This document shows, one piece after another, positions 12,417 through 29,894 of a DNA stretch of 64,000 nt. This stretch comes from Chiloscyllium plagiosum (lineage: Eukaryota). Location: positions 101,843,060 through 101,907,059 of the forward strand of contig NC_057717.1 in NCBI RefSeq assembly GCF_004010195.1. The letters are read 5' to 3'. A program made the position numbers and the translations under genes. A model generated the notes under the pieces. The model ran no database searches, had not been told where the DNA came from, and saw only the letters and a list, made by a program, of their open reading frames with translations. The number at the start of each line of letters is the position of its first letter. Position 1 is the stretch's first letter.

Positions 12417-12440
12417 CCAAAGCTCCGAACCCCACTCCAT
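12417..12440 (-). CDS. TRIP10: First coding exon of an F-BAR/CIP4-family gene (MEWGSELW), most likely Cdc42-interacting protein 4
   Basis: Minus strand aaacatc ATG GAG TGG GGT TCG GAG CTT TGG|gtgagt: good Kozak context, 24-nt exon, canonical donor. Matches the M-[DS]-W-G-T-E-L-W start of TRIP10/FNBP1/FNBP1L. TRIP10 chosen from the acidic residue 2 and synteny with GPR108. No further exons found in the window. Confidence 0.75.
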
Positions 12441-12800
12441 GATGTTTTAACTTTGCCTTTAATTCAGGCTGGGAAGAGAGAGGATTGATCAGCAGTCTCT
12501 TTGTTAATTTCCTTTTTGTTTCTCCACTCACTTGGTCCGGTCTCTTGTTCTATGTTTGAATTTGATTACAGAAACTGCTCTCTATATGAATGGTGTGCCT
12601 GGCATCCTTTAAACTGTAAACATTTCTCCAGTCCCCTGGTTAATTCCAAACTGCGATTTACCCTGCGCTGCGCAATCCCGCGTCACCGACACCAGTCCGC
12701 CTCAGAGACAGCTCAACTGCGCCTCACTGCAGTATCACACTAACACAGCAAGCGCCCTGTCTGCAATCAGTCTGCAGCAAGGTGTACACGGCTGGTGTTG
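12441..12800 (-). promoter_or_regulatory. 5' UTR / proximal promoter of the TRIP10-like gene
   Basis: Repeat-free stretch upstream of the ATG with a local CpG cluster (ctgcgctgcgcaatcccgcgtcaccgac, 12663-12720). TSS not determined. Confidence 0.45.
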
Positions 12801-13859
12801 TTAAAGGGACACCCTCACACTAACACACTTGGGCCTCCTGGCTCAGAGGTAAGGCACTGCCACTGTCAAATGAGCCCACGCCACATAAAAGACAAATATT
12901 CACAAACATCACCTGCATCATGAAATCTTCTGAATTAATACTGACAGCAAGGTCAGAGAGGAATTCTCCCTGAGTATATTTTTCCCTCATCCCCCACAAT
13001 GGGGTTTGGGTGTACCCCTGTTTTGACTTGCTATTCCCAGGAAATTGCTTGGCTGTGGGTGGGGGAAGACATAACAGACTGTCTGGTCTCAGTGTTAGTT
13101 AGTCCTTTCTACCTTGTTAATTTTCAATTTTCTTACTCAGTTCTGCTGTGCTAAATGGAAACCAAACTGTGGAAGTTGCAGAAATCTGAAATAGCCTTCT
13201 CACTTTCAGTAGAATCAGTATCTTTCGATCATCTCTGTGAAAACCTTTCCAGATTTTAGACATCTCTCTTCAATCCCTCTAACCTTCGCCTCTCCAAGGA
13301 GATCAAATCTAATGTCTGCTGAAAGGTCATTGACCTGAACAGTTTCTGTCTCCACAGGTATTTTCTGAGTTGCTGATTATTTCGAGCATTTTCTGTTTTT
13401 ATTCCAATTAAAAATCTCTGCAGACAACCAAAAGCTTTCGTTGCTTGTTAAATCTCTGCTGCACTCTCTCCAAAGACTTAACATCCTTTTTAAAGTGCAC
13501 GGGTGCAAGGGAAAGTGACAGCTCATGAATTCTCCCATCATTGATGGGCTTTCGTTTCTGTTCACAATCCCGGCAGTCCACCTCAGTGTGGATTATACAC
13601 AACATCCCAACAGTGTCAGGAATGCAAGTGACACTCTGTGGTTGTTATACCTGCCTAGCTGTCATGATAATCTACATACTTTCCTTAATTATAACTCAGA
13701 AGAAGTGGAAAGTAGCTTATAAGTTGCCTATATGTTGCAGATACAGTAGGATAGACTGTAGACTTGATTATGGTCTAACATTGCCACAAAGAACAACATC
13801 AAAACAGTGTACAGAGTAATTTCTCACAATGCATAGACAAGTAAACTTTAATATAAATA

Positions 13860-14110
13860 GTCACAAGATGTTGAAAGGACGTCCAATTTGGTAGGGGTGT
13901 GCAGAACAGACTTACCAAGATGGTTCCAGGGATAAGGGATTTTAGTTACAAGGTTAGGTTGGAGAAGCTTGGTTTGTTTTTTTCGAACAAAGGGAGACCT
14001 GATAGAGGTGTACAAGATTGTGATAAGCTGAGAAAGGGTGGACAAAGACACAAATTTCCCATCAATCGAAGGTACAATGACTCGGCACCACAGATTTAAA
14101 TTTTTGGGTG
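13860..14110 (+). mobile_element. Old CR1 LINE fragment
   Basis: ORF 13899 QNRLTKMVPGIRDFSYKVRLEKLGLF is CR1 ORF2-like. Confidence 0.7.
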
Positions 14111-16575
14111 AAGATATGTTTGAGGTGGAGAAATATGTGAGAGAGATAGAGACAATTGATAATTGGTAATTGCATAAATGTTGAGTCAAGATAAACAGGT
14201 GAAAAGAATTCAATATTTGAACAAATATAGTTCTTTGAGGAAGAATTAACCAACCTTTTCAGATATGGAGTAGGTGGGATTTGAATCTGGACCCTCTGGT
14301 CCAGAGGTCAGGACACTACCACTGCACCAGAAAATCACTTTTGAGCAAACAGGAAGAGATATTGACTGACAGTGGAATTGAAAGAAAGATTGGGAGCTAT
14401 ATAAATCGAAACTGAGCAAAGATTGACTTTGCTTCCTCTCCTTCACCGAATGGTTGTTACAAGATTAACAGTAATGACGAGGAAATCAATTCCACAGTCT
14501 CATATTCTGGAGCTGTGTTGCAAAAGGAAATGCCATGGGTGTTTGAGGGAAATAAACCCACAGGTCTATGGATATACAGTTGGAGATTAGGACTGATTGG
14601 ATCAGTCTACAGACAGCCATCATGGATTTGACGCAGTTATGACCCTGCGACATTACACAGGGAATCCAGAAGGAACTTTTAACTACCGCGTGGTAAGAAT
14701 GTCAGCAATTGGATAAAAAGAATTGCAGTTCGTAGGAATACATTAGAAGAGACTAGTGTGAAGACTGGAACAAGTCAGTAAGTCGTCTATTTTGAACAAA
14801 TGATAACAGAAGGTAATAGATGTAATCCTGAAGACAGAGGATGGCTGAGGTTCAAGTCCTGCTACAGGAGATGGTGGAATTTGAACTCAATAAAAAATCT
14901 GAAACTAAGAGTCTAGTGATGATCATAAATCCACTGCCAATTGTCAGGAAAATCCATCTGGTTCACTAATGTCCTTGAGGGAAGGAAACTGTTATCCTTA
15001 CCTGGTGTGGCCTACATACCATTCCAGACTACATCGGATGCTACCTGAGGCAGGAAAACCTCACAATCTGTAGAATTGGTTGGGTGGGCATTTGAAATGT
15101 CATAGCATTCAAGGTTATAGGACAAATGTTGGAAAGTGGGATGAGTGTACATAGGTCAGCATAGATACAATGGACTGAAGGGTCTCTTCTGTGTTGTATG
15201 ACTCCATGGTTGCAGAAGAGCCATGCTGGCTGTGTGAGCATAAGTTGTAGGAGTGGACGTAGGTCATTCAGCCCATTGAATTTTCTCCAATATTCACTGA
15301 GATTGTGGCTTAGGATGGCACAAAACAAACAAATGTGACATTTCATTACAGCAAGGGTTTTTGTGGCACATTGGTACCTCTGAACCAGGAGGTCTAGGTT
15401 CAAGTCCTGCATGCTCTAGAAATGTGTCATAACATCTCTGAATAGGTTGATGAGAAGGTAACTATTTCTTGGTCAGTACAGTTACAAGCAGCAGCCACAG
15501 GTGAGAATGGGAAGTATGTAAAATGTTCGATGGTATAATTTCTATGTCAGCAGATCAATAATCCCTTAGCTTTATACTAATGAATCAGCAATGAGTTCAA
15601 ATAGGGAGCAGCTGGGGAATTTAACTTCAATTAATTAAATCAATCTGGAATAACAAAAGTCATATTAGACATGATGGCCATGAAACTATCACATCTTTGT
15701 CAAAAAACAAACCCACCTAACCAACATTTTGGGGGGGGGGGGGCAAGAAGATCTAAATCCTAGCATGGTTGGTGTAATGCACATCTGAAATTAACCTCAA
15801 TAGGCATTGCACAGTTATTTGGCTGCATTGCGGGTAACAGCTCATTACAGATTAGCGTAAGATTTGTTTTGGGTTCCCCAGCAAGTAAATGCAACAAAAC
15901 CATTTAGTCCAGCACAAGGACAGTTTCAGGTGGTGAGGAGCTGGCTGAGATTACAGGGCTAGTATAATCATTGGCTTGTAGTCCTTAGGCAAAAGGGAGG
16001 AGGTTTTACCATCTCTGACTGTTAATGCTGGAATGTACACGTGTATGAATTTTCATTGTTGTCCCAAAAGCAAAATAGTCTGCCTGGCCTCTCACACACA
16101 CAATATAAAGAGTTGGTATATCATAAACAGCATTTTTGAGCTATGATGTACAATAATTAGTACTTCCACAGATATGCTTGGAATTTATTGTAAGTATCAT
16201 TCAGTATTTCATGCACAGAATATAATCAGTTTAATATGTGCTGATTGCTGCACGCCATCCAGCATTGATTGTTCAACATATGTTTAAATAAACCCAGAAA
16301 ACTATGAGGATGTATTCAAAAGGAACTTCACAGTCTGTATACCTAATGCCATCTAATGGTGTGCAGTTATAGTGCACTCATTCACGAGAATCCAGTTCCT
16401 TCAGACATACAACTTCCAGATCTTTCTCACAGCACACATTTGGTTTAATTTATAAATATTCCTATCGCCCTCTATGGCCAGATTCATATACAATAGGTAC
16501 CCATGATCCTCGGGGAGAGGTCATTGCTTGCATAAGCCTGGGCAGTAAGCATAAGTAGACTTGTTGACTACAAAG

Positions 16576-17310
16576 TGAAATAACTCCAGAGAGGCTGGTA
16601 TCTCCAAGTCACCCTTTGCTTACACGTGGATATTGTTATTGGGAGGATAACCCTTTACTTCCTTGACACTGAGAGTTGGCTCTGAGGGAGCTGTATCAGA
16701 GTGAACAGGTCCTCTGATACTCCTGTTTGTAATAAACCTGTTGGACTATAACCTGGTGTTGTTGATTTTTAACTTCATGTACCCCAGTCCGGGCACTTCC
16801 AAATCCTGTTTTTTTCTGAGAAGATTCTAAATCTCCTATTTTTAAAAAAATATTTTAACCCCCACACTACTGCCTAACTGTAGTAGTGCTTATATTTTCC
16901 CTAGAACCCATGTTGTGTGTGTGCAGATATAGGATACAATGAGAAACAACACAAATACAAATCTTTATTCAATTTCCACCACCAGGAAGAAAGGAAACAC
17001 CCAAGTGGCCAGTGACAAGCAGTGCCCTTCTCAGAGGGCAATGCTCCAAATCCTGTTTATTTTTTTCGTGTAGGTGTGAGACACAGTGAAAGACACAAGG
17101 TGCATGAATCTTTATTCAAATTTCCACCACCAGGAAGAAAGGAAACACCCAAGTCGCCTGTGACAAGCACTGCCCATCTCAGAGGGCAATGCTCCAAATC
17201 CTGTTTATATCTGTCAGCCAAGGCTCCCTGATTGGGGCTGTTTACCTGGTTCAATCGGGGAACTCATATTCTATGAGTTCCACCTGGCTGGCCTCGTTAC
17301 AATCACTATA
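16576..17310 (-). mobile_element. 3' LTR of a Gypsy element, expanded by nested insertions
   Basis: On the minus strand a polypurine tract (ggaggaggga, 17311-17320) precedes TATAGTGATTGTAACG...; the LTR ends ...ggagttatttCA at 16576. Collinear with the solo LTR at 59666-59889 once the inserts at ~16730-17205 are removed. Confidence 0.7.
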
Positions 17311-19700
17311 TCCCTCCTCCTCTGAGTCCAAGGACATAGGCCGGTTCTTTGTTTTGTAATTCAGCCTGGGGCATTCCAGCACCAGGTCAGGTTCCTCTGA
17401 CCTTGCCTCTGATATGGGCAGCGTGTAACACACAGGAGCTCACCTCTTGCACCTGGAGAGTCTTGGAAAAAACTCACTCTTTTTCAGGTGGCAAAGAGGT
17501 TGAGGCAGCAACACCCACTGTGTCTATCTCAGATATTGAGGTAACTTCAACGCTCAACCCCACGGGTTTTGGAACAGTCAGAAAGATTTTTGAGGAGTTG
17601 GGCACATTTTGCTCCCACTCCATTTGCACCTTTCACATGGACCACCTGCTTGCTCAGGACTATCGCAGCTACCCTAAACTTTACATGTCACTGGATCTGA
17701 TCTTGGGTCAACCACACCTCTTTCCCATTCCTTGGTTCCTACACCAAACTTCGTACACTGAAGTAAACCGTCTCCCTCACTTAGCAGAGTTGTGTGCTTG
17801 GCGTTGGCGTTTCTAATGCAGTTTCATCCTCCTCAGGTCCAGGAAAATCAGATTTAACTTGGTGCGGAGTCTTCACCCCATTAGCAACTCTGCTGGAGCT
17901 CTCCCTGTAGTTGCATGAGGAGTGGTCCTATAATCAAAAAGGAACCAGGACAGTTTGGTATGTTGTGAGGGTGTAGGCTGTTTCTTTAAACCTGCCTTTG
18001 GACTGCTCTTTCTGCCAGGCCATTGGATGATGATGTTACGGAGCTATCCTTACATGTCAAACCCATACGACCAGTAAACGATGGCCCATTATCTGTGACC
18101 CACACTTCTGGGAGTCAGTGTTTTACACAAGATGCACATAGGTTTTCTATCGCCATCCCTGTGTTTGAAAATGAACTCTACACACATCCTATCACTTTGA
18201 GTGAGCATCCACAATGACTAAGAACATTGACCCCATGAAAGAACTTGCATAGTTGGTGGTACCGAGTCCAGGGTTTAGCTGGCCATTGCCACTAATGTGG
18301 GGGAGCTGCTGGCAGTAATTTTTGTCCTGGTTGGCGCTCTGGGCACTGCCCCTCCAATCCAGCTACATCTGCATCCAATCCTGGCCACCAGGCATACCTT
18401 CTCGCCAACAGCTTCATTTCAGAAGTCCCGGGTTGATGCTGGCGGAGTTCAACCAATATCTGGCAGCAACCTTTGCTCGAGACAGTCATTCCTCCTCCTG
18501 ATAACAATATCCATCCTCTACTCTGATCTGGTCTTGCCAGGTCCACAAAGGTTTCAGTTTTTGTTGTGATGGCCCTTTGGTTTCCCCCATCCACCACCAG
18601 CTGTTTCAGTTTTGCCAGAAGTGGACCTTTCTGTATCCAAAGTCGATATCATCAGCTCTAACCCGAAGTGTGCGCAGAAAATCTAAAACATCATGGACTC
18701 TTCCAGTGGCAGTACCACTGGTGGGGCATCTGCGTTTGCTACATGTACTCCTGGATGGTGTTCCAACTTATAATTCTACACACTTTATGTTACAGCTTAC
18801 TGCTAAATGCGGCCTGAAGCTATGGGTGGCACTGCCTTGTCCTCTTTAAGTAAATCTAGCAGGGGTACGTGGCCTGTTATTACAAATTTACTTCCACTAA
18901 AGGTATGGGTGGAACTTCCTGATTACAAACCAAACCCTCCATCTCTATTTGGGTGCACTTATGGTCTGCATTAGCCAAAGTCCTGTATGCATACATTATT
19001 GGGCGTTCCTCTCCATTGGGCCACTCATGAGCTAATACTACCCCAGTGGAGTACAGGGGAACCTCGCATGTCAATACCACAATCTCACTTGGGATTGTAG
19101 CTTGCCAACACCTTCGAGGATGATAACTGTTTCTTCATATCCTTGAAAGTGATGGCTTGACCACACAACCAATTCCAAGGCTTGATTTAGAGATGCTGGC
19201 ATTTGACTGGGGTGTACAAAGTTAAAAATCACACAACACCAGGTTATAGTCCAACAGGTTTAATTGGGAGCACTAGCTTTCAGAGCACTGCTCACAACCA
19301 CCTGATGAAGAAGCGACACTCCAAAAGCTAGTGGTTGCAATTAAATCTGTTGGACTAAACCTGATGTTGTGTGATTTTTAACTTATTGCTAAGGCTAACC
19401 CTCTTTTGAATTGATGCAAAGATGCCAGGATAGAGGCCAGATTGTGCATGAACTCTCTGTAATAATTAACCAGCTCAAGGAGAGACCTAAGCTCTGGTAC
19501 AGATGTGGGAGCGAGGGCACCTTTGATCACCATCACTTTATCTTCCAATAGGTGTAACCCTGTCTTGTTGACTCTGTAGCCCAAGTAGGTCACATGAAGT
19601 GGCTGGAACACACATTGTTCTCTTCGAAGGCATATGCCTACCTGGGAGAAATATCTAAGGACTGTGTCCAAGCTCATTAAGTGCTCCTTATTGATCTTCC
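17311..19700 (-). pseudogene. Decayed Gypsy/Ty3 pol (RT - RNase H - integrase), 5'-truncated
   Basis: Frameshifted fragments: RT VLRYFSQVGICLRREQCVF..VTYLGY..APTSVPELRSLLELVNYY (19378-19677); RNase H GVVLAH..GEERPIMYAYRTL..TQIEMEGL (18880-19080); integrase zinc-finger region HPGTSEMKLLARRYAWWPGLDADV-like (18292-18597). RT-RH-IN order indicates Gypsy. Confidence 0.85.
19195..19385. mobile_element. Palindromic Penelope-type element (family A) inserted in the Gypsy pol
   Basis: aaaatcacacaacaccaggttatagtccaacaggttta ... taaatctgttggactaaacctgatgttgtgtgattttt inverted arms; hammerhead-like core at 19295-19337. Confidence 0.65.
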
Positions 19701-20821
19701 CTGTTCCAAGCGGAGTAGTTGGTGGCTTGAAGGGAAACTTGCATGTGGTGGTGGCGTTCTCTCATGTCCTCCTCAGGGGTAGAGGCTATCAATTGGAGCC
19801 TTACGCTCTCCATACTCCTCACTTGTGGCGCTCATTGCACTATGTGTTGGCTGATCAGAGCGAAAAGGTTGGAATGCAAGAAACTCCCTGGCACCTACAG
19901 GGGCAGGGATACTCCGAAAGCAAGAGTAAACTCTCAATAGCTGTCTTGAGAAATCAGTAAACTCAGCACTAGGGATTCCAACTGGAAACTGTCTGGTCAG
20001 CACAGCAGGGCTAAATGTTGCTCTTAGCAGCTGAGATTTAGGAGCTACCTGCTGCTTATAATGAAAAACCAAAAGAAAAATAAAATCGGCTCCCCTGTAA
20101 TTTCTGTAAACTTAGATGGAAATTAAAACATTGACAAGGATTAATTATAGCCTTCCGGTTAATTCCCATTGCTTACTGAAACATTCAATGATTTAGAAGT
20201 CAATTAAAAGGCATAAAAACAATTTGAAATGGAATTATAGTTTTGACATGACGTTTAAAATAGCTAGTTTCCTCTGCTGTACTTCAGTGGAACTTAAAAG
20301 CAGGTTGTACCAGCTACAAAATAAGTCTTTTCCTCTGGGTGTTTGAGTTCCGCTTAATGAGGGGTAAAGACTGCTTAACATTTTTAATTTCCACCACTAT
20401 CATTATCCTTCCGATATCAAGGGTGCAGTGTTACAAGTGAGACTGTCGACAGGTACTGTCCCACCCACAGATACAGGTACTGTTCTCCCTTGGTTACAGG
20501 TAGCCTTGAATGCTGCCTAATTAGCACAAAATGTAGACCTAGTCTCCTTCAGGGAAGGGAGCCTTCACAACTCTTAATGGGCCCAGCAAACCATAATGTT
20601 TTCTGAAAGAAATCCAGCATCCCCCATCAACCCAACAAAGGAAATGCAAACCTTGCCAGCAATGCTCCCCTTCAGATAGCAAATTAAGGACAAGCATGAC
20701 TCAGCATCACAAGAAACAATTCAGAAATGCTCTTGTTACAAAAGGAAAGATAGAATGTAATTAAACACTAATGAAAAGCTGCAAAAATGTGTTACAGACA
20801 CAAAAGAATGTCTACTTCACT

Positions 20822-20827
20822 TTTATT
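20822..20827 (-). promoter_or_regulatory. Candidate polyadenylation signal (AATAAA) of DR1
   Basis: tttatt on the plus strand, ~400 nt downstream of the DR1 stop, in repeat-free AT-rich sequence. Confidence 0.45.
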
Positions 20828-21230
20828 TTTCATTACTGTAAACAAGGCAACTTCATCTTCAATTACCTAACACATTAATGAAACCCACAAAATACATGTT
20901 CAACAGGAACATTTATCTGTTTAATACATCACTCCAATTAACCAAAAGCTCACATGTATAAAAATCCATGTTATGGCCTGAAGATCCTGATTGTATATTG
21001 TCCATCTCAGACCATGTCACTTTTTAAATCCAGCAAGTCTGAAGTCCAAAGAGAGAAACCATGTTATTTTTCCTCCCATTTTAGGCTGGTCTATTAAAAT
21101 TCCACAGCTGGCACTTCAGTCTCCAGTTGTGGACATGAGCAGATGTCCACTGATGACCATCTACGCTGCCACTGTGAACATGGCAGGACACGGGTAGATG
21201 GAAGGGGAATGAGACATCCTGAATTGTGTT

Positions 21231-21368
21231 CTAGGTGTCCTCCTCCTCTTCCTCGTCCTGCGAGGAGCCAGCCTTGTTGGCGGTTGCTGCTGCGAGCTGT
21301 GCCTGCTGAGCAGCTTGTTGCATCTGTAACCATTCTTGCTGTGCCAGTTCTGCCTGCTGCTGGCGAGC
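21231..21368 (-). CDS. DR1: DR1 (NC2-beta) last coding exon
   Basis: tttcccctcag|GCT CGC CAG...: ARQQQAELAQQEWLQMQQAAQQAQLAAATANKAGSSQDEEEEEDT*, matching the QA-rich and acidic C-terminus of DR1; phase 0 fits the upstream exon. Confidence 0.95.
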   Translation of the reverse strand, partial: ARQQQAELAQQEWLQMQQAAQQAQLAAATANKAGSSQDEEEEEDT

Positions 21369-22539
21369 CTGAGGGGAAATGGAGAAAGTCAGGCTGGGGT
21401 TCAAAGCAAATCTCCCTAGTGGGTGGGACAGGAATCTTGTTTGGGTGTTGGGGGGGGGGGGGCGGGAGAAGAGTGAGAGAGATTTTGCTCCATATTTAAC
21501 TCAACCCTCCTTGACACAAATAACATTGACGAGAAACCTATTGAAATTGCCACTCTAGCATGCATCCAGTTTGGTTGTGATGTGTACTTTAGGGACTTAA
21601 GTGATTTATTACACAGACAGAGTATGCAGTCTACAAGGAGGCAATACTTTCCAGATAGAACTTACAAAGCAGCCTCCATCTTCACCTTAGGGACAACTCT
21701 AAATTTGAGTATTCCTCTCAATTCCTTGTCACTGTTCTCATTCAATTAACTTGTGTTAAGATGAAATTTCACTAGTGCCGTATCTTCAAGTTGTCAGCCA
21801 TGGGTCAGTGTGAAGCACTCTCTCTTGCCTCAGTTACAGGTGAGGGTATCAAATCCCAATCGCGGATGGACATCTGCAAATGCTGGATGAGCACGCAGAC
21901 TGAAATTCTTTCATAACAGTGACAGCTCACTTTCACAATTCAGAATACCAGAGAAGCTCAACCTGTTCAACAGGTACAAATCTGTGACAGTGAGAGGGGC
22001 AGATTGATTTTGGGGCTCCTTATTTTGGTTACAGTGAGTAACTTCAACATGGGGGGGGGGGGGGGGGGAGGGGGCAGGAAACGACACATATCAGTAATGT
22101 CTCAAGTTGAAACCTTGGTCTGTGGCATGTTTTCCAATTCCAGCACGATTGGTAGTTGGGGCACAACTGATTCTCTCAGCACGTTTACCCAGTAGCTCCT
22201 CATCACTGCTAATGTCCTCCTGGGAAGTGTTAACTATGTGAGCTGAACTATGTGCTGGCAATCACTTTCTACTTTGTGCTATTATTACCTTCAGCCTTAC
22301 CATCAAAATACTCTTCTTGCTAGTTTTTAAAAGTAATATTCTGTCAAAATGCCATGACTCAAGCTTTGTTCTTGCCTTTGAAATGATTCCATGATTTTCT
22401 TGACCCCAAGAAACTAATTACAAAATTCCAACCAACTCCCTTCATGATTTCACTCAAGCCTACCACATCCATCTTCCTCAACTTTAAATCTTTGTTAAAC
22501 CCTCTGCTACTTTGACATCATTCACTTCTTGGCAGAGGT

Positions 22540-22705
22540 GGGTACTGCAGATGCTGGAGATTAGAGTGGTGCTGGAAATGCACAGCAGGTAAGACATCAT
22601 TCGAGGAGCAGGAAAATCAACTTTTCGGGCAAAAGTCCTTTATCAGGATTTTCATGCTCCTTGGATGCTGCCTGACCTACGGTGCATTTCCAGCACCACT
22701 CTAAT
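22540..22705. mobile_element. Palindromic Penelope-type element (family B)
   Basis: tgcagatgctggagattagagtggtgctggaaatgcac ... gtgcatttccagcaccactctaatc inverted arms. Confidence 0.65.
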
Positions 22706-25700
22706 CATGGCAGCCCCCCACCATCCACTTCTTGCCTGTTCTAAATCCTGGATTAAACACTTTTGAAGGGAAGCTAGATAGGTACCTGCAAACGGAAGAA
22801 AATGCTGACACAATGACCGAGAGGAGTTAAGGATGGGAGGGCACTTACATACAACATGAATACCAATATGGACCAGCTGTGCCAAATGGCCTACATCTGT
22901 ACAGCACGTTCTTTTTAAACCCTATAATCTGGGAGTTTCTTCCAAACTTTACCTGCCTGATAGTTTTGTTTTGTTTTCGAACCCTCCATTTGTTTTGATC
23001 AAGCCATTGGCTTCCCGTGGCCCCAATCATTTTTCTGATTTCTCCTCCTCGCTCACTCAGCATCCAGCCTTCTGTAATGTTTGGACGTTGTTTCAAGGAA
23101 CTGACAGTCAACCGAGGAAGAAGTCAACAGCTAGGGGTGCAAAGCGTTGTGCTGTAAGTTGCTCAACATGGCTGGACCAAACCAGCTGGAAGGTGTGGAG
23201 TTGGAGGAAGCAAGGCTGGAAAATGCAGTGAGTAGTCAGCCCTCACACCTACCTCCCAACAACTAACGACAATAAGCTGCCTTGCACATAGGAACCTTAT
23301 CTGGGAAATGGTGTGTAGCATATCAATCTAAATTCGGTAAGGAAACAAGTTAATTAAATTTGTTTTGCAACTTTTTTTTTTAAAAGCTGCAAAATCATTT
23401 AGAAAAGTGTTTGACCTGATTTCCAGCACCATGGATCACAGCTGACACTACTATTGTGATTTAAAACACACTGTTGTCTTACCCTATAGATATATGGTCA
23501 TCTAAATAATATGGAAGCAAGAAACAGTTTGCCGCATTGATAACGGCTTGTGGACTCCAGAGAGTCTGGCTGCTAAGTAAAAAATAGAGTTAAAAGGAAA
23601 CTGTAGACAGATAATGGCCATAATCAGAATCTAGAATACCACTGTTTGGGTGCACTTCAGAGCTTGCTGCAGTGTTTAAAGTTTGATAATTTTGTATTTC
23701 ACGTTTTGAGAAGAAATAATCTTTGCTTAATTTTTACTTGATTATCTGACATTCAATCCTGGATGGGTAGAAATATCCTCTGGCTAAATACTAGAGACCA
23801 AAGGAATGAACTTTGATTCAAGTTCCGGCTCTTGTTCCGTATACACAGCCTCTCACCTGCTCCCTGTCACTGTGACTGAACCAGACCATTTACAGCCTGG
23901 CCCTATTTGACTCCAAGATAGACTTCTGACGGCAAATTCATTCCATCAAAATTAATTTCTTTCACTTCCAATATCTTAACCAAATGCATCCCCTGCTTTA
24001 ATTCATCTACGTCATTGCTGTTAAACTGGACTAATCCAGGAGGTGATAGATAGGTTCTTGATTGTCAAGGGGATCAAGGGTTAGGGGGAAAAAGCAGGAG
24101 AATGGAGTTGAGGAACGTGTCAACCATGGTTAAATGGCGGAGCAGACTTGATGGGCTGAATGGCCTAATTTCTGCTCCTATGTCTTATAGTCGCACTGAA
24201 TATCTTGTACCCATAATTGTATGAAATTGTTCTGCTTCATCAAGTCAAAGCCCTACTGCTGATATTCCAACTTGACTATTCACCTATCACCCCTTGCCTT
24301 GCTCATCTATGTTGACCTGAAAATCTTGCACCATTCAGTTCACTGTCGTTCTCTGATCAAGAGAAAGCTGGCAGAGACTGCTGGTCCACACTAGGCGATG
24401 CTTAATACAGTTAACCACCACAACGCAAACCATTGCCTTACAAAACAGAAAGCAGGTGAGTAAGCAGTCATTTAAAATGTTTCACTCCATTGCAATTCTG
24501 AAACGCCTCCAGTCTCACAACTCTCCAATAGCTTTGTGCTCCTCCAATTCTGGTCTTCTCTACATCCAACTTCATTGCCCAACTGGTGGCCTTCAGCTGC
24601 CCCAGTCCCAAACACAGAAAATCACGTTGACTGACAAAAAAAACTCACATATTGGTTGCAATCACCCCTCCAGCACCTCATTTATCCACTCCATGATGGC
24701 CTGTTCAATCCAGCAACTGCCCAACTTCCATCTCAGCGCTCAATTTGAAGCAACCTTCTTGAGCAAGATCTAACAGCAAATATCCTTAGCATCGAGAAAT
24801 GGGAAACATCAGAGGTCAATACGAAGTTGCTTGTGATAAATCCAATCTGTCAGTGGCAGGTTATGAACTATCATGGCAAGAGTGGCTCATGCTAAACAGT
24901 TGAGGGTAAGAAAGCTAAGTCTACCATTGGGGCCCCAGTACAATCACCTTATCCACATGTGGAGAGACACAAACAATACTATGCATTACTGAGGAGTGTT
25001 CCTGCTAAAGATTGAGAGGTGGTCTAATCACCTTAAACTCAACAAATGAGGCTATTGTTCGGCTTCAGGGATTTGCACCTCATATCTAAACAAATATCTC
25101 TCTATTCAACTCTTTTAAGATGTTTCTTGGCTAAGTTTTTGGTCACTTTATCCTCATGTGGCTGGATGTCAAATTTTCTTTAAACACTCCACTAAAATGC
25201 TTCAATATGTTATATTAGCTAACGTAGCTGTATAATGCAGATTCTTGGTGAGTAACTTTCTTCCCAATAAAATCCCTGACACTTGTGTAGAGGAGCTCAA
25301 ACAAAATGAGGAATTTTGGATGTTTTGAAGGATTGGGAACTGGCATTGTTCTCCAGGAATCAGAGAAGAATCACAAAGTTCTAATGCTCAACTTTATGAG
25401 AAGATTTATTTGAGTAATTCCTGAGAAACTGTTGGCACTCGGAGGGAGGTCACCAACCAGAGAACACAGAGTTAAATTAATAAACAAAGAACCAGAGGTG
25501 ATGGAAGATATTTTCTTCTTAAAAGGCACTGAGTTTCGATTTGGAATGCAGAGACTGAAATGGTACTGGAAGCAGATTCTTTGGTAACTTTCAAAGGGAA
25601 TTAGATAAACACTCAAAAACAGAAACTTGTGGGGCTGTACGATAAGAGCAGAAGAGTAGGACTAAATTATTTCAATGAGCCAGCCCAGGCATGATGAGCT

Positions 25701-26177
25701 AAATTCCTGTGATGTGTAATTGTATTAAGTACTTCTCTTTCACCATGTCAAAATGAATCCAGCCAGGACAATCCATTCAGTTGTCCCAGTAGTTTCAAAA
25801 AAATGAGACAACAGTCATGATGGAGTTGAGAGAGACACACACACACACACACAGCCTCTCCACAAAATGGGGCATTTCAAGTCATCATATTTCCTCAAAA
25901 GTCTCTTAATGATGGACTTTGCCTTCAGTGATAATCAAGGCAAGAAGTCTAGATGAATTCTGTATAATGCCTCTTGTATCAATTTTGGTTACGAGGCAGG
26001 TGAAATAAAGAACAATTGATTAACAGTCAAACTCAGATTTTACAGTCTACCTATAAGGTGAACGCAAGTGGGGCTGAGTGTGGTATAGTTGGTTATAAGC
26101 TCCAATTTTGAAAAACTGGGGGCAACTTACTTGAAAAGTAGTGACACATGTCAAAAATATTGAGCAAGTTTCCTTAC

Positions 26178-26341
26178 TTTTGCAAACAACTCTTGTTGCT
26201 GGCGTAGCAGTTCCTCCTCTGGTATGCCAAGGTTCTCTAAGCGAGCGTTTGCCTTTCTCCTTTCTAAGGCAACTGTCTTGCATTCCCGCAGAACTTCCTT
26301 TACTTCTGTTATGTACGATCCAAAACCTAGACTTTCCAAGG
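26178..26341 (-). CDS. DR1: DR1 (NC2-beta) middle coding exon
   Basis: gtgcaacag|CC TTG GAA AGT ... TTT GCA AAA|gtaagg; 164 nt, phase 1 to phase 0; ALESLGFGSYITEVKEVLRECKTVALERRKANARLENLGIPEEELLRQQQELFAK is near-identical to vertebrate DR1. Confidence 0.95.
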
Positions 26342-28113
26342 CTGTTGCACAAGGTAACAGAAAGCATGTTGTAACATTCCCCTGGCTCTGCAAAAGATCT
26401 CTGCTGCATATTAATTTAGACCTGACAAATCCAATATCAAAATCTTTGTATTTACAGACGGGTTTATGATTTAATTCTACACTTTTGTTGGGTATTGATT
26501 TAAACTCAACAGTTGGATATCAAAATCTATTCATATTCATGTAGAGAACCAGCTGTGTTCAGTTTTATTTCAAATTCATTTCATTCACTTTCTCTTGGCA
26601 TTTTGCCTTTCCAAAACACTTCAGCTGTGGTCATTCCAAGTGTATAAGCTATCTTCAGTATCTTGCCCAAGTGACCATTATGAGAACTTATGACAGTGCC
26701 AACAAAGCTTTTTGAGGGCAGTAGAGCCAGGTTAGATCCCATCCTCGTTCGATTTCCACACTGTCAACGGAGTCACCAGATTACAACTTGAATTGAGAAC
26801 ACAAGCTGATCTTTCTAGCTCCTTAGTCTAAGGAAGGAAACCCACTCAGAAACGGGGAGAATGTACATACTATCCATAATCATCCGAGGTTAGTATTAAC
26901 CCCAAATGTTTGCAAGAATAACTTTGCAGGGACAACAGGACTTTTTTGTGATCATTCTTATGCCTTAGCACAATTGCACTGCCTTCCCCACCTGGTTCCA
27001 TGAGAATTCATGGGATTTGGAGTCAGGTTTTGAGGACTCCAAGGGCAACTCCCTGTAGACTGTGCACCACAGCCATCAGCCTTCCTGGGTCTGTCCTGCC
27101 CCTGGGAAAGGAATGGATGTCAACAGTGTTGTCAGGGACTTTGTAAGGTATGATTCCGAGAGTATGATGTCAGGCTGCTGCTTGACCAATCTGAGAGATT
27201 ACTCTCCCAATTTTAGTACTAACCCCAGACGGTAGAAAGGAGGACTTTGCAGGGACACCAGGCTTTATTGTGATCATTTCTGAGCCTTAGGCGATTCCAG
27301 ATGGTCTGTGTCTGTCCAGTTTCATTTATTTTTTGAGACTGGTTGAATTCTAGTAAATGGCTTTCTTGTCCATTTCAGAGTCAATGACATTGCTGGCGTT
27401 GAATGGCAGTTTCCTTTTCTAAAGGACATTAGTGAACCATATGGTTTTAGGATTTAACTGTAACTGAATTCAAATTTGTGGTCGGATTTGAACCTGGTTC
27501 CCAGAACTCAATCACTGGATTTTCAGTCTAGCAACAATACCACTAAGTCATTGCTGCCCCTATGGCATTAAGTTTATCAACGTGGCATACTTCAATAGTC
27601 TTCTACACCTTACTGTGCAGCTGTACAGAGGGGAAAAAAATTCTGGTTATAGACTGCACTGCATGGCCTCTCAACCTAACAGCTATTGAAACTGTTTGGA
27701 CTTATCACTGGACTGTTAATCTAGAGACCCACGTAATGTTCGGGGGACCTGGGTTCACACCCCACCATGGAAGATGGTGACATTTGAATCCTGGGCAATG
27801 AGGAATGGGAAATAAATGTTACCCAGCCTTTGGCACCCTCATCCCATGAATGAATTTTAAAACAAAACTTTTGAGATGTAGTCATTGCTGCAACATAGGA
27901 AATATAGTAATACATTGGGCAGCAAGCTCCCACAAACTGGAATGAATCAGATCAGCTGTCATTCATCAGGCACTGGTTGCAGGATAAACACTGACCAGGA
28001 CGCAAGGGAGGTCTGTTCAATGAATGGAAACTACAAGACCTTTCACACCCACGCAACAGGGGTACAGGGACCTTAACCTTAATGTTTACTTTGATGTGTG
28101 GCATCTTCAAGAG

Positions 28114-28613
28114 NNNNNNNNNNNNNNNNNNNNNNNNNNNNNNNNNNNNNNNNNNNNNNNNNNNNNNNNNNNNNNNNNNNNNNNNNNNNNNNNNNNNNNN
28201 NNNNNNNNNNNNNNNNNNNNNNNNNNNNNNNNNNNNNNNNNNNNNNNNNNNNNNNNNNNNNNNNNNNNNNNNNNNNNNNNNNNNNNNNNNNNNNNNNNNN
28301 NNNNNNNNNNNNNNNNNNNNNNNNNNNNNNNNNNNNNNNNNNNNNNNNNNNNNNNNNNNNNNNNNNNNNNNNNNNNNNNNNNNNNNNNNNNNNNNNNNNN
28401 NNNNNNNNNNNNNNNNNNNNNNNNNNNNNNNNNNNNNNNNNNNNNNNNNNNNNNNNNNNNNNNNNNNNNNNNNNNNNNNNNNNNNNNNNNNNNNNNNNNN
28501 NNNNNNNNNNNNNNNNNNNNNNNNNNNNNNNNNNNNNNNNNNNNNNNNNNNNNNNNNNNNNNNNNNNNNNNNNNNNNNNNNNNNNNNNNNNNNNNNNNNN
28601 NNNNNNNNNNNNN
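28114..28613. other. Assembly gap (500 N); expected to hold DR1 coding exon 1
   Basis: Run of N. The DR1 N-terminal histone fold is not found elsewhere between exon 2 and the promoter. Confidence 0.9.
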
Positions 28614-28934
28614 AGGGAGAAGTGAGACGGCGGTCATAAGAAAGAAGGAGATTGACCCGACACAGAGCTGCCTCCCACCACCTTTGCCCCGTCCCCCTGC
28701 CTGCCGCCACCTTTACCATCTTCACCTTCTCTCACTCCACAGACCCCCCGCCATCTCCACCGGAAGTCTCCGCCAGCACTGCTTCCGTTTCCCAGGGCAA
28801 CCGGTTTTTAAAAAAACGGCCTTTTGCCTCTTTCAAGTTTAGATTCCTTTTTTCTCCTCATTTGCTCCTTTTAGTAATCTACTGAATTTATTAAAAGTCA
28901 CAAATATAGAAAACACCTTGTTACATGCTGCACG

Positions 28935-28950
28935 CTGGGAGTTGTAGTTT
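28935..28950 (-). promoter_or_regulatory. ZNF143/Staf (SBS, ACTACA-N-TCCCAG) site 1
   Basis: Minus strand AAACTACAACTCCCAG followed by CGTGCA. Confidence 0.75.
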
Positions 28951-29087
28951 ATCAGTGTTTAATCGGAGATAAAAATCAGAATGTTAAGAAGTACTTTGCT
29001 GAAAGGTCATCTTTTGTAACTGAAACTGGTTTGATTGTGTAATTGGAATTTTAAAAAGCTTCTTGCGGAATTGGCGAGCAAAGATGT

Positions 29088-29103
29088 CTGGGAATTGTAG
29101 TTT
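29088..29103 (-). promoter_or_regulatory. ZNF143/Staf (SBS) site 2
   Basis: Minus strand AAACTACAATTCCCAG, a match to the canonical motif. Confidence 0.75.
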
Positions 29104-29804
29104 ATCTCAATTTAATGTTATTTACTCCACTGTAAATTGGATTTCGCAAGTTAATATCTTTGTCTTTATATTTGTGTTGTAAAATATAATAAAATTAACT
29201 TTTGCTTATTTATTTACTATCTTCTTAAACCGTTTATTTTTTCTTCAAGGACGACTCGACCACAGGTCCCACCCTTTTAGGGCCGGTCCAGACTGAAATG
29301 CAGCCTTTCGGTTGGTTGTTGCCGTCGATTGTGTACAAAGTGTCAAGCCACGGTTGGTCAGTCCGTCAAGGAAAGGCGGAACATCAGTGACAAAAAGGGG
29401 CTTTTAATCACAGTGTCTGATCTGCGGTTGGTCGATCCGACTCTCATTATGGCACTATGGTATCGCCCATTGGTGCGCACAGCTGTCTATCATAGAGCCG
29501 AATCTGCGGTTGGTTGTTTGCCCTTTTAATCAAGGGATGTGGCATCCTCCATTGGTGCGCCCCACTGCCTATCAAAAGCCGTGTCCTGCGGCTGGTCGAC
29601 GTCCGTCAATAAAGAAGACGGCCCGCCGCCTATTGGTGCATCGAACCGTCAATCATGAAACGCGTGAGGTGGTGGGTTGATCGTGAGGGGAAGTGAAGCT
29701 GCTGATTGGCCCGTCCAGCCATCAGTTTTGCGCGGAGAGTGTGGGCGGTGCTTGTCTGATGGCGGACCCGCCTCCCCCCCCTCACCACTGCTTCCGGTTG
29801 TGTG

Positions 29805-29894
29805 ATGATGGCAGGGAGAGGTCCTCGGGCCGTGCCGCTGTTCGTCTTGTTCCTCGCCGGGGCGACCGCGCGGATCCACCACCTCACCCTCCGG
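29805..29894 (+). CDS. GPR108: GPR108 exon 1 (signal peptide)
   Basis: MMAGRGPRAVPLFVLFLAGATARIHHLTLR|gtaagg; hydrophobic signal peptide then RIHHL, as in GPR107/108. Confidence 0.88.

Follow-up and report, generated by a model that had tools for sequence, protein, structure and literature searches.

DR1 (NC2-beta) is a core transcription regulator present in one copy in humans. In the shark Chiloscyllium plagiosum, a DR1 gene between TRIP10 and GPR108 raises the question of which copy this is and how it arose. The gene lies in a 64,000-nucleotide stretch of chromosome C8 (G000:C8:101843060-101907059), hereafter the window. An earlier note, written from the letters alone, proposed that it is a different whole-genome-duplication copy from mammalian DR1, and that sharks either have two NC2-beta subunits or have kept the reciprocal copy. 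Below, DR1b denotes the copy in the window and DR1a the copy on C11.

The DR1b gene, its assembly gap and its putative promoter

The gene order described in the earlier note, with TRIP10 and DR1 on the minus strand and GPR108 on the plus strand, head-to-head with DR1, agrees with the exon coordinates and strands in the window. The first coding exon of TRIP10 (CIP4) lies at 12417..12440 (minus strand), and the rest of the gene is found outside the window at C8:101731317-101771875, with 13 more exons at C8:101.73-101.77 Mb. The first coding exon of GPR108 lies at 29805..29894 (plus strand), and that gene runs beyond the window end. Between TRIP10 and DR1b, positions 17300-19300 (minus strand) contain degraded remnants of an LTR-retrotransposon-like pol, interrupted by stops and frameshifts.

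The visible DR1b exons are intact and have GT/AG ends, as had been claimed. They are the middle coding exon (26178..26341, minus strand), in which E replaces K100, and the last coding exon (21231..21368, minus strand), which encodes the Q/A-rich region, the acidic tail and the stop. The 3' UTR (20807..21230, minus strand) features an AATAAA at about 20827; positions 20807 and 20810 are where contigs resembling transcripts stop. The ATG-bearing exon is missing from the window sequence; a histone-fold search of the genome located it on the unplaced scaffold C101836, where it encodes an H2B-like histone fold (PF00808, E 1.3e-19). This coding exon 1, assembled separately as C101836:181-609, falls in the N gap at 28114..28613 (minus strand). 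A non-coding 5' exon (28726..28755, minus strand, covered part only; donor 28725) is present in the sequence to the right of the gap, and precedes the ATG exon.

Contigs from several sequencing runs connect these pieces. A 712-base DNA contig from run X1 corresponds to C101836:1-439 (its letters 1-438) and to window 27840-28113 (its letters 439-712), the two placements being paired by length and depth. Because this contig joins both, C101836 begins where the gap begins. An 1180-base contig from X9 combines C101836:181-609 with window 20810-21367, window 26177-26343 and a 31-letter piece from window 28725, and a contig of 939 bases from X4 contains the three DR1b coding exons. Both contigs lack the 4809-base intron, which has CT..AC ends and which the DNA-like run X1 includes; the run records do not list X4 and X9 as RNA, and we class them so by their content. 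A single-cell poly(A) run (X21, about 2% sampled) placed a few reads on the DR1b 3' end at a mean depth of about 2. At C101836:321 the assembly has C and the reads have G in all four runs, which gives a conserved proline rather than an arginine, and the joined frame is open over 174 residues.

The first contig of C101836 (L003:1-1809) belongs in the gap of the window and is now placed on a chromosome; since it measures 1809 bases, the real gap is longer than the 500 N shown. The remainder of the scaffold is mostly repeats and N gaps. An assembly artefact, either a mis-join at the gap, which the earlier note had named as fatal to its reading, or a pseudogene without exon 1, as the missing ATG exon might suggest, is practically excluded, because the X1 contig bridges the scaffold to the left edge of the gap, the spliced X9 contig spans all four exons, and the frame is open. 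DR1b is a real, expressed and old paralog.

The GPR108 start and the non-coding first exon of DR1b are about 1 kb apart. The CpG-rich interval between the two genes (28756..29804, unstranded) is likely a shared bidirectional promoter and contains the only two ACTACANNTCCCA motifs in the window (minus strand, 28936-28948 and 29089-29101). The chance mean is 0.04, and two or more motifs occurred in 0 of 100 shuffles. We take the motif to be a ZNF143/THAP11-type site of bidirectional promoters. DR1b is likely transcribed from a promoter common to GPR108.

A second DR1 gene and the C8, C11 and C30 paralogon

A whole-protein search of the genome returned seven matches. C11 holds three of these exons, C8 two and C101836 one; the seventh is an NF-YB-like exon on C19. 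DR1a, on C11, is located upstream of FNBP1L on the same strand, as in mammals, and an SH2 exon comes next on the opposite strand. Upstream of DR1a lies an RDH8-like exon, an order also seen in a fused gene model of bichir. One C11 match that scored as a degenerate copy (42% with stops) proved on direct translation to be an intact exon. The second DR1 that the earlier note had wished to see checked for beside FNBP1L is thus present, and this shark has two intact NC2-beta genes, DR1a on C11 and DR1b on C8/C101836; the suggestion that sharks kept the reciprocal copy is refuted. No credible match for a third DR1 was found near GPR107 and FNBP1 in 320 kb of C30, nor genome-wide.

DR1a and DR1b are identical at 150 of 173 residues, with a dN of 0.075 and a saturated pS of 0.96, and GC3 of the first coding exon is 0.38 in DR1b versus 0.85 in DR1a. 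Both coding intron positions are common to the two genes, which lie on different chromosomes; DR1b is therefore neither a retrocopy nor a tandem copy.

The order on C8 is SH2 adaptor (plus), the F-BAR gene TRIP10 (minus), DR1b (minus), GPR108 (plus), and two C3-like genes (plus). We take the order at human 19p13.3 to be SH2D3A, TRIP10, GPR108 and C3, so that the C8 block equals the human order with DR1 added. The tandem C3-like genes are found downstream of GPR108 at G000:C8:102.04 and 102.18 Mb (L079 and L080), and one of them was checked against PDB. In a supplement of PMC10751288, C3 marks "MHCpara-19".

Phylogenies identify the flanking genes. In a 17-row F-BAR tree, the C8 protein joins CIP4/TRIP10 of platypus, newt, chimaera and teleosts with support of 100/99, whereas the C11 protein joins FNBP1L of tetrapods with support of 100/100. 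A constrained tree that places the shark TRIP10 group with FNBP1L is rejected (p-AU 9e-5). The F-BAR gene beside DR1b is TRIP10, as first read, and not FNBP1L. On C30, the F-BAR exon that was tested best matches FNBP1. Annotated GPR108 sequences are the relatives of the C8 GPR gene in the trees, both with group-specific templates (99/97) and with a neutral amphioxus template (95/92), and the C30 gene groups with GPR107; forcing the C8 gene with GPR107 gives a borderline p-AU of 0.054. No match to GPR107/108 was found in PDB, and an Atlas look-up of the GPR gene returned the GOST family only. The SH2 exons of C8, C11 and C30 resemble one another and presumably belong to SH2D3A, BCAR3 and SH2D3C, names given by position.

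C8, C11 and C30 carry paralogous neighbours whose orientations match. Several genes that flank DR1b, among them the F-BAR, SH2 adaptor, GPR107/108 and complement genes, are duplicated in parallel across these chromosomes, a pattern expected of a whole-genome-duplication ohnolog. The premise of a head-to-head arrangement holds for DR1b and GPR108 and fails for GPR107 in this assembly, where it lies on the same strand as FNBP1 rather than head-to-head as stated for human; the first exons of both are unlocated. The GPR107-FNBP1 region (G000:C30:36.63-36.92 Mb; L055-L074, L081-L092) may reflect a real inversion or a scaffolding error. A CpG-rich LINE-like insert occupies 36.916-36.922 Mb of C30.

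We propose that the ancestral block would have consisted of GPR107/108, DR1, an F-BAR gene and an SH2 adaptor. From this block, C11 would have retained DR1a-FNBP1L-SH2, C8 would have retained GPR108-DR1b-TRIP10-SH2, and C30 would have retained GPR107-FNBP1-SH2 without DR1. In such a scheme, it is DR1b that fixes the ancestral gene order of the paralogon.

Age and distribution of the duplication

Each of three trees unites DR1b with the coelacanth Dr1-like protein (96/92, 88 and 91/91; one DR1 tree used 27 of 43 rows). Their common features are an N-terminal insertion, an overlapping C-terminal deletion, and T25I, E62D and I72M. The window gene does not nest with the FNBP1L-linked shark copies, an outcome that would have told against a separate origin, and instead forms a separate clade together with the "Dr1-like" proteins of chimaera and coelacanth. 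The base of the jawed vertebrates is unsettled in the DR1 protein tree: neither a grouping of all DR1a together (p-AU 0.19) nor one of coelacanth Dr1-like with bony DR1a (p-AU 0.11) is rejected, and a chondrichthyan-only duplication is marginally rejected (p-AU 0.045). With this base unsettled and the AU values marginal, the case for an ohnolog comes chiefly from synteny and from the trees of the flanking genes. The proposal of a preserved GPR107/108-DR1-F-BAR block carrying the other genome-duplication copy is upheld by flanks and trees, except at the deepest split of the DR1 protein tree. A duplication that predates the split of cartilaginous and bony fish is favoured by the coelacanth clade, the shared indels and the flank trees.

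A chondrichthyan-specific duplication of DR1, with one copy later moved beside GPR108, is very improbable. Shark DR1a and the DR1b group come together in one tree, weakly (80/80), and the join is unsupported in a later tree. Such a copy must also have inserted exactly upstream of the FNBP1L paralog while keeping its introns and matching the orientation seen beside FNBP1L, and the coelacanth protein has the DR1b indels. The two copies group to the exclusion of cyclostome DR1 (98/94 in one tree, 89 in another), a placement that leans to the second (2R) duplication, the jawed-vertebrate genome duplication described in PMC7269912. DR1b is likely a leftover of early vertebrate genome doubling kept by sharks, rays and chimaeras; to judge from the protein, coelacanths probably kept it as well.

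The distribution of DR1b was drawn from the best 120 of 157 and the best 120 of 319 matches in protein searches, plus cluster members (large clusters in part). Among 245 retrieved members of the DR1 family that contain the first-exon motif, 27 are DR1b-type: 22 from named chondrichthyans, 3 from coelacanth, and 2 without a species name. At least 21 named chondrichthyan species have DR1b, counting one partial model, and one of the 21 may not be independent of this genome. Besides DR1b, a distinct DR1a record exists for chimaera, skates, rays and sharks. Dr1-like and CIP4 records lie on contigs of identical size in all nine comparable named species and are therefore taken as linked. No DR1b was found among the retrieved ray-finned and tetrapod proteins (best matches listed), and in one part of a lungfish chromosome table (supplement of PMC10751288) TRIP10 (minus) adjoins GPR108 (plus) with no gene annotated between them. 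From the best matches listed and this one table, DR1b is likely absent from bony fish, coelacanths apart, and from tetrapods.

Blenny proteins with E62D (clusters of P0011 and P0012) were considered as DR1b and are DR1a-type; blenny proteins P0294, P0296, P0011 and P0012 are unusually divergent for this type. Some database models fuse DR1 to FNBP1L (bird, crocodile, marmoset, hedgehog), RDH8 (bichir) or CCDC18 (rattlesnake); these (P0082, P0085-P0091, P0097, P0158, P0325) are read-through or annotation artefacts, useful as evidence of synteny. DR1b itself is already in databases under the automatic name "Dr1-like". A literature search, which missed subscription journals and bioRxiv supplements, found no paper on a DR1 paralog, and "dr1" does not occur in 8 supplementary files accompanying a paper on a catshark transcriptome; tables in shark genome papers may already include DR1b.

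Protein divergence, function and known systems

The best solved-structure match of a DR1b ortholog (P0127) is human NC2-beta, over its full length (1JFI chain B, E 8e-92), and at 308 bits versus about 60 for NF-YB the protein is closer to NC2-beta than to NF-YB. The C-terminal extension, with the TBP-anchoring helix and the Q/A-rich region, is present and conserved in sequence. In NC2, according to PMC4565979, the histone fold lies under the DNA, helix H5 anchors on TBP and H4 contacts downstream DNA; DR1 also pairs with YEATS2 in ATAC (PMC10591836). With its histone-fold and C-terminal regions kept, DR1b most likely acts as an alternative NC2-beta subunit, and its histone fold would pair with DRAP1 (NC2 on TBP-DNA) or YEATS2 (ATAC).

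Shark-ray distances are 0.052-0.139 for DR1b versus 0.011-0.028 for DR1a and are larger for DR1b in all four pairs; by this measure, DR1b evolves several times faster. Near-fixed differences are M21I (20/20), L38M (20/20), K100E (19/20, one ray having K) and Q92R (18/20), and the two consensus sequences are the same over residues 107-156. Position 100 is Q in coelacanth, and K or R in 38/38 DR1a, 5/5 cyclostome and 8/8 invertebrate proteins, hence basic in all 51. We take 100-KRRK-103 of DR1 to be an import signal located in H4; it is a conserved motif whose absence does not exclude membership in DR1. V71I and I72M of DR1b fall within the export signal at 66-80 (PMC3442415).

The loss of charge at K100 would weaken DNA contact or nuclear import. 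It could be extended to a specialised second NC2-beta in cartilaginous fish and coelacanth, in which altered DNA contact or import divides the NC2/DRAP1 and ATAC/YEATS2 jobs of human DR1 between paralogs or tissues, a reading that we consider rather unlikely. A serious possibility, though one we still regard as somewhat doubtful, is that DR1b is a true ohnolog serving as a mere dosage back-up, biochemically equal to DR1a and drifting under relaxed selection; it concerns function only and is compatible with an ohnolog origin. The overall identity of the two proteins, the unchanged consensus of residues 107-156 and the one ray with K at position 100 are consistent with a back-up, and since two or more bony lineages seem to have lost it, DR1b may be dispensable. 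Its intactness across sharks, rays and chimaera, with four near-fixed substitutions, argues against this account.

As a whole, we hold it highly probable that DR1b is a genome-duplication ohnolog of the C8/C11/C30 paralogon. Most likely it serves as an alternative NC2-beta; its promoter is probably shared with GPR108, and partitioned expression probably explains its retention. Relaxed constraint would likely have accompanied that retention. A second DR1 kept since before the chimaera/shark split indicates that a core transcription subunit can escape the return to single copy, and warns of hidden paralogy where DR1 is used as a single-copy marker. With few near-fixed substitutions, DR1b is also a natural variant useful for parting NC2 from ATAC functions.

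Like human DR1/NC2-beta, DR1b has the histone fold, Q/A-rich region and acidic tail. Unlike human DR1, it resides in the TRIP10/GPR108 paralogon, features a one-residue N-terminal insertion and a C-terminal deletion, and carries K100E, Q92R, and V71I/I72M in the export signal. The database "protein Dr1-like" models of chondrichthyans and Latimeria are by sequence the same gene, automatically named without an origin or function attached. Closest in pattern is Pdx2, as described by Mulley and Holland 2010 (PMC2944030). Unlike Pdx2, a homeobox gene of development, DR1b encodes a component of the general transcription machinery (NC2, ATAC); for Pdx2 the synteny in coelacanth has been demonstrated, whereas coelacanth DR1b was recognised from its protein. 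With DR1b, the Pdx2 pattern extends to a gene of housekeeping type.
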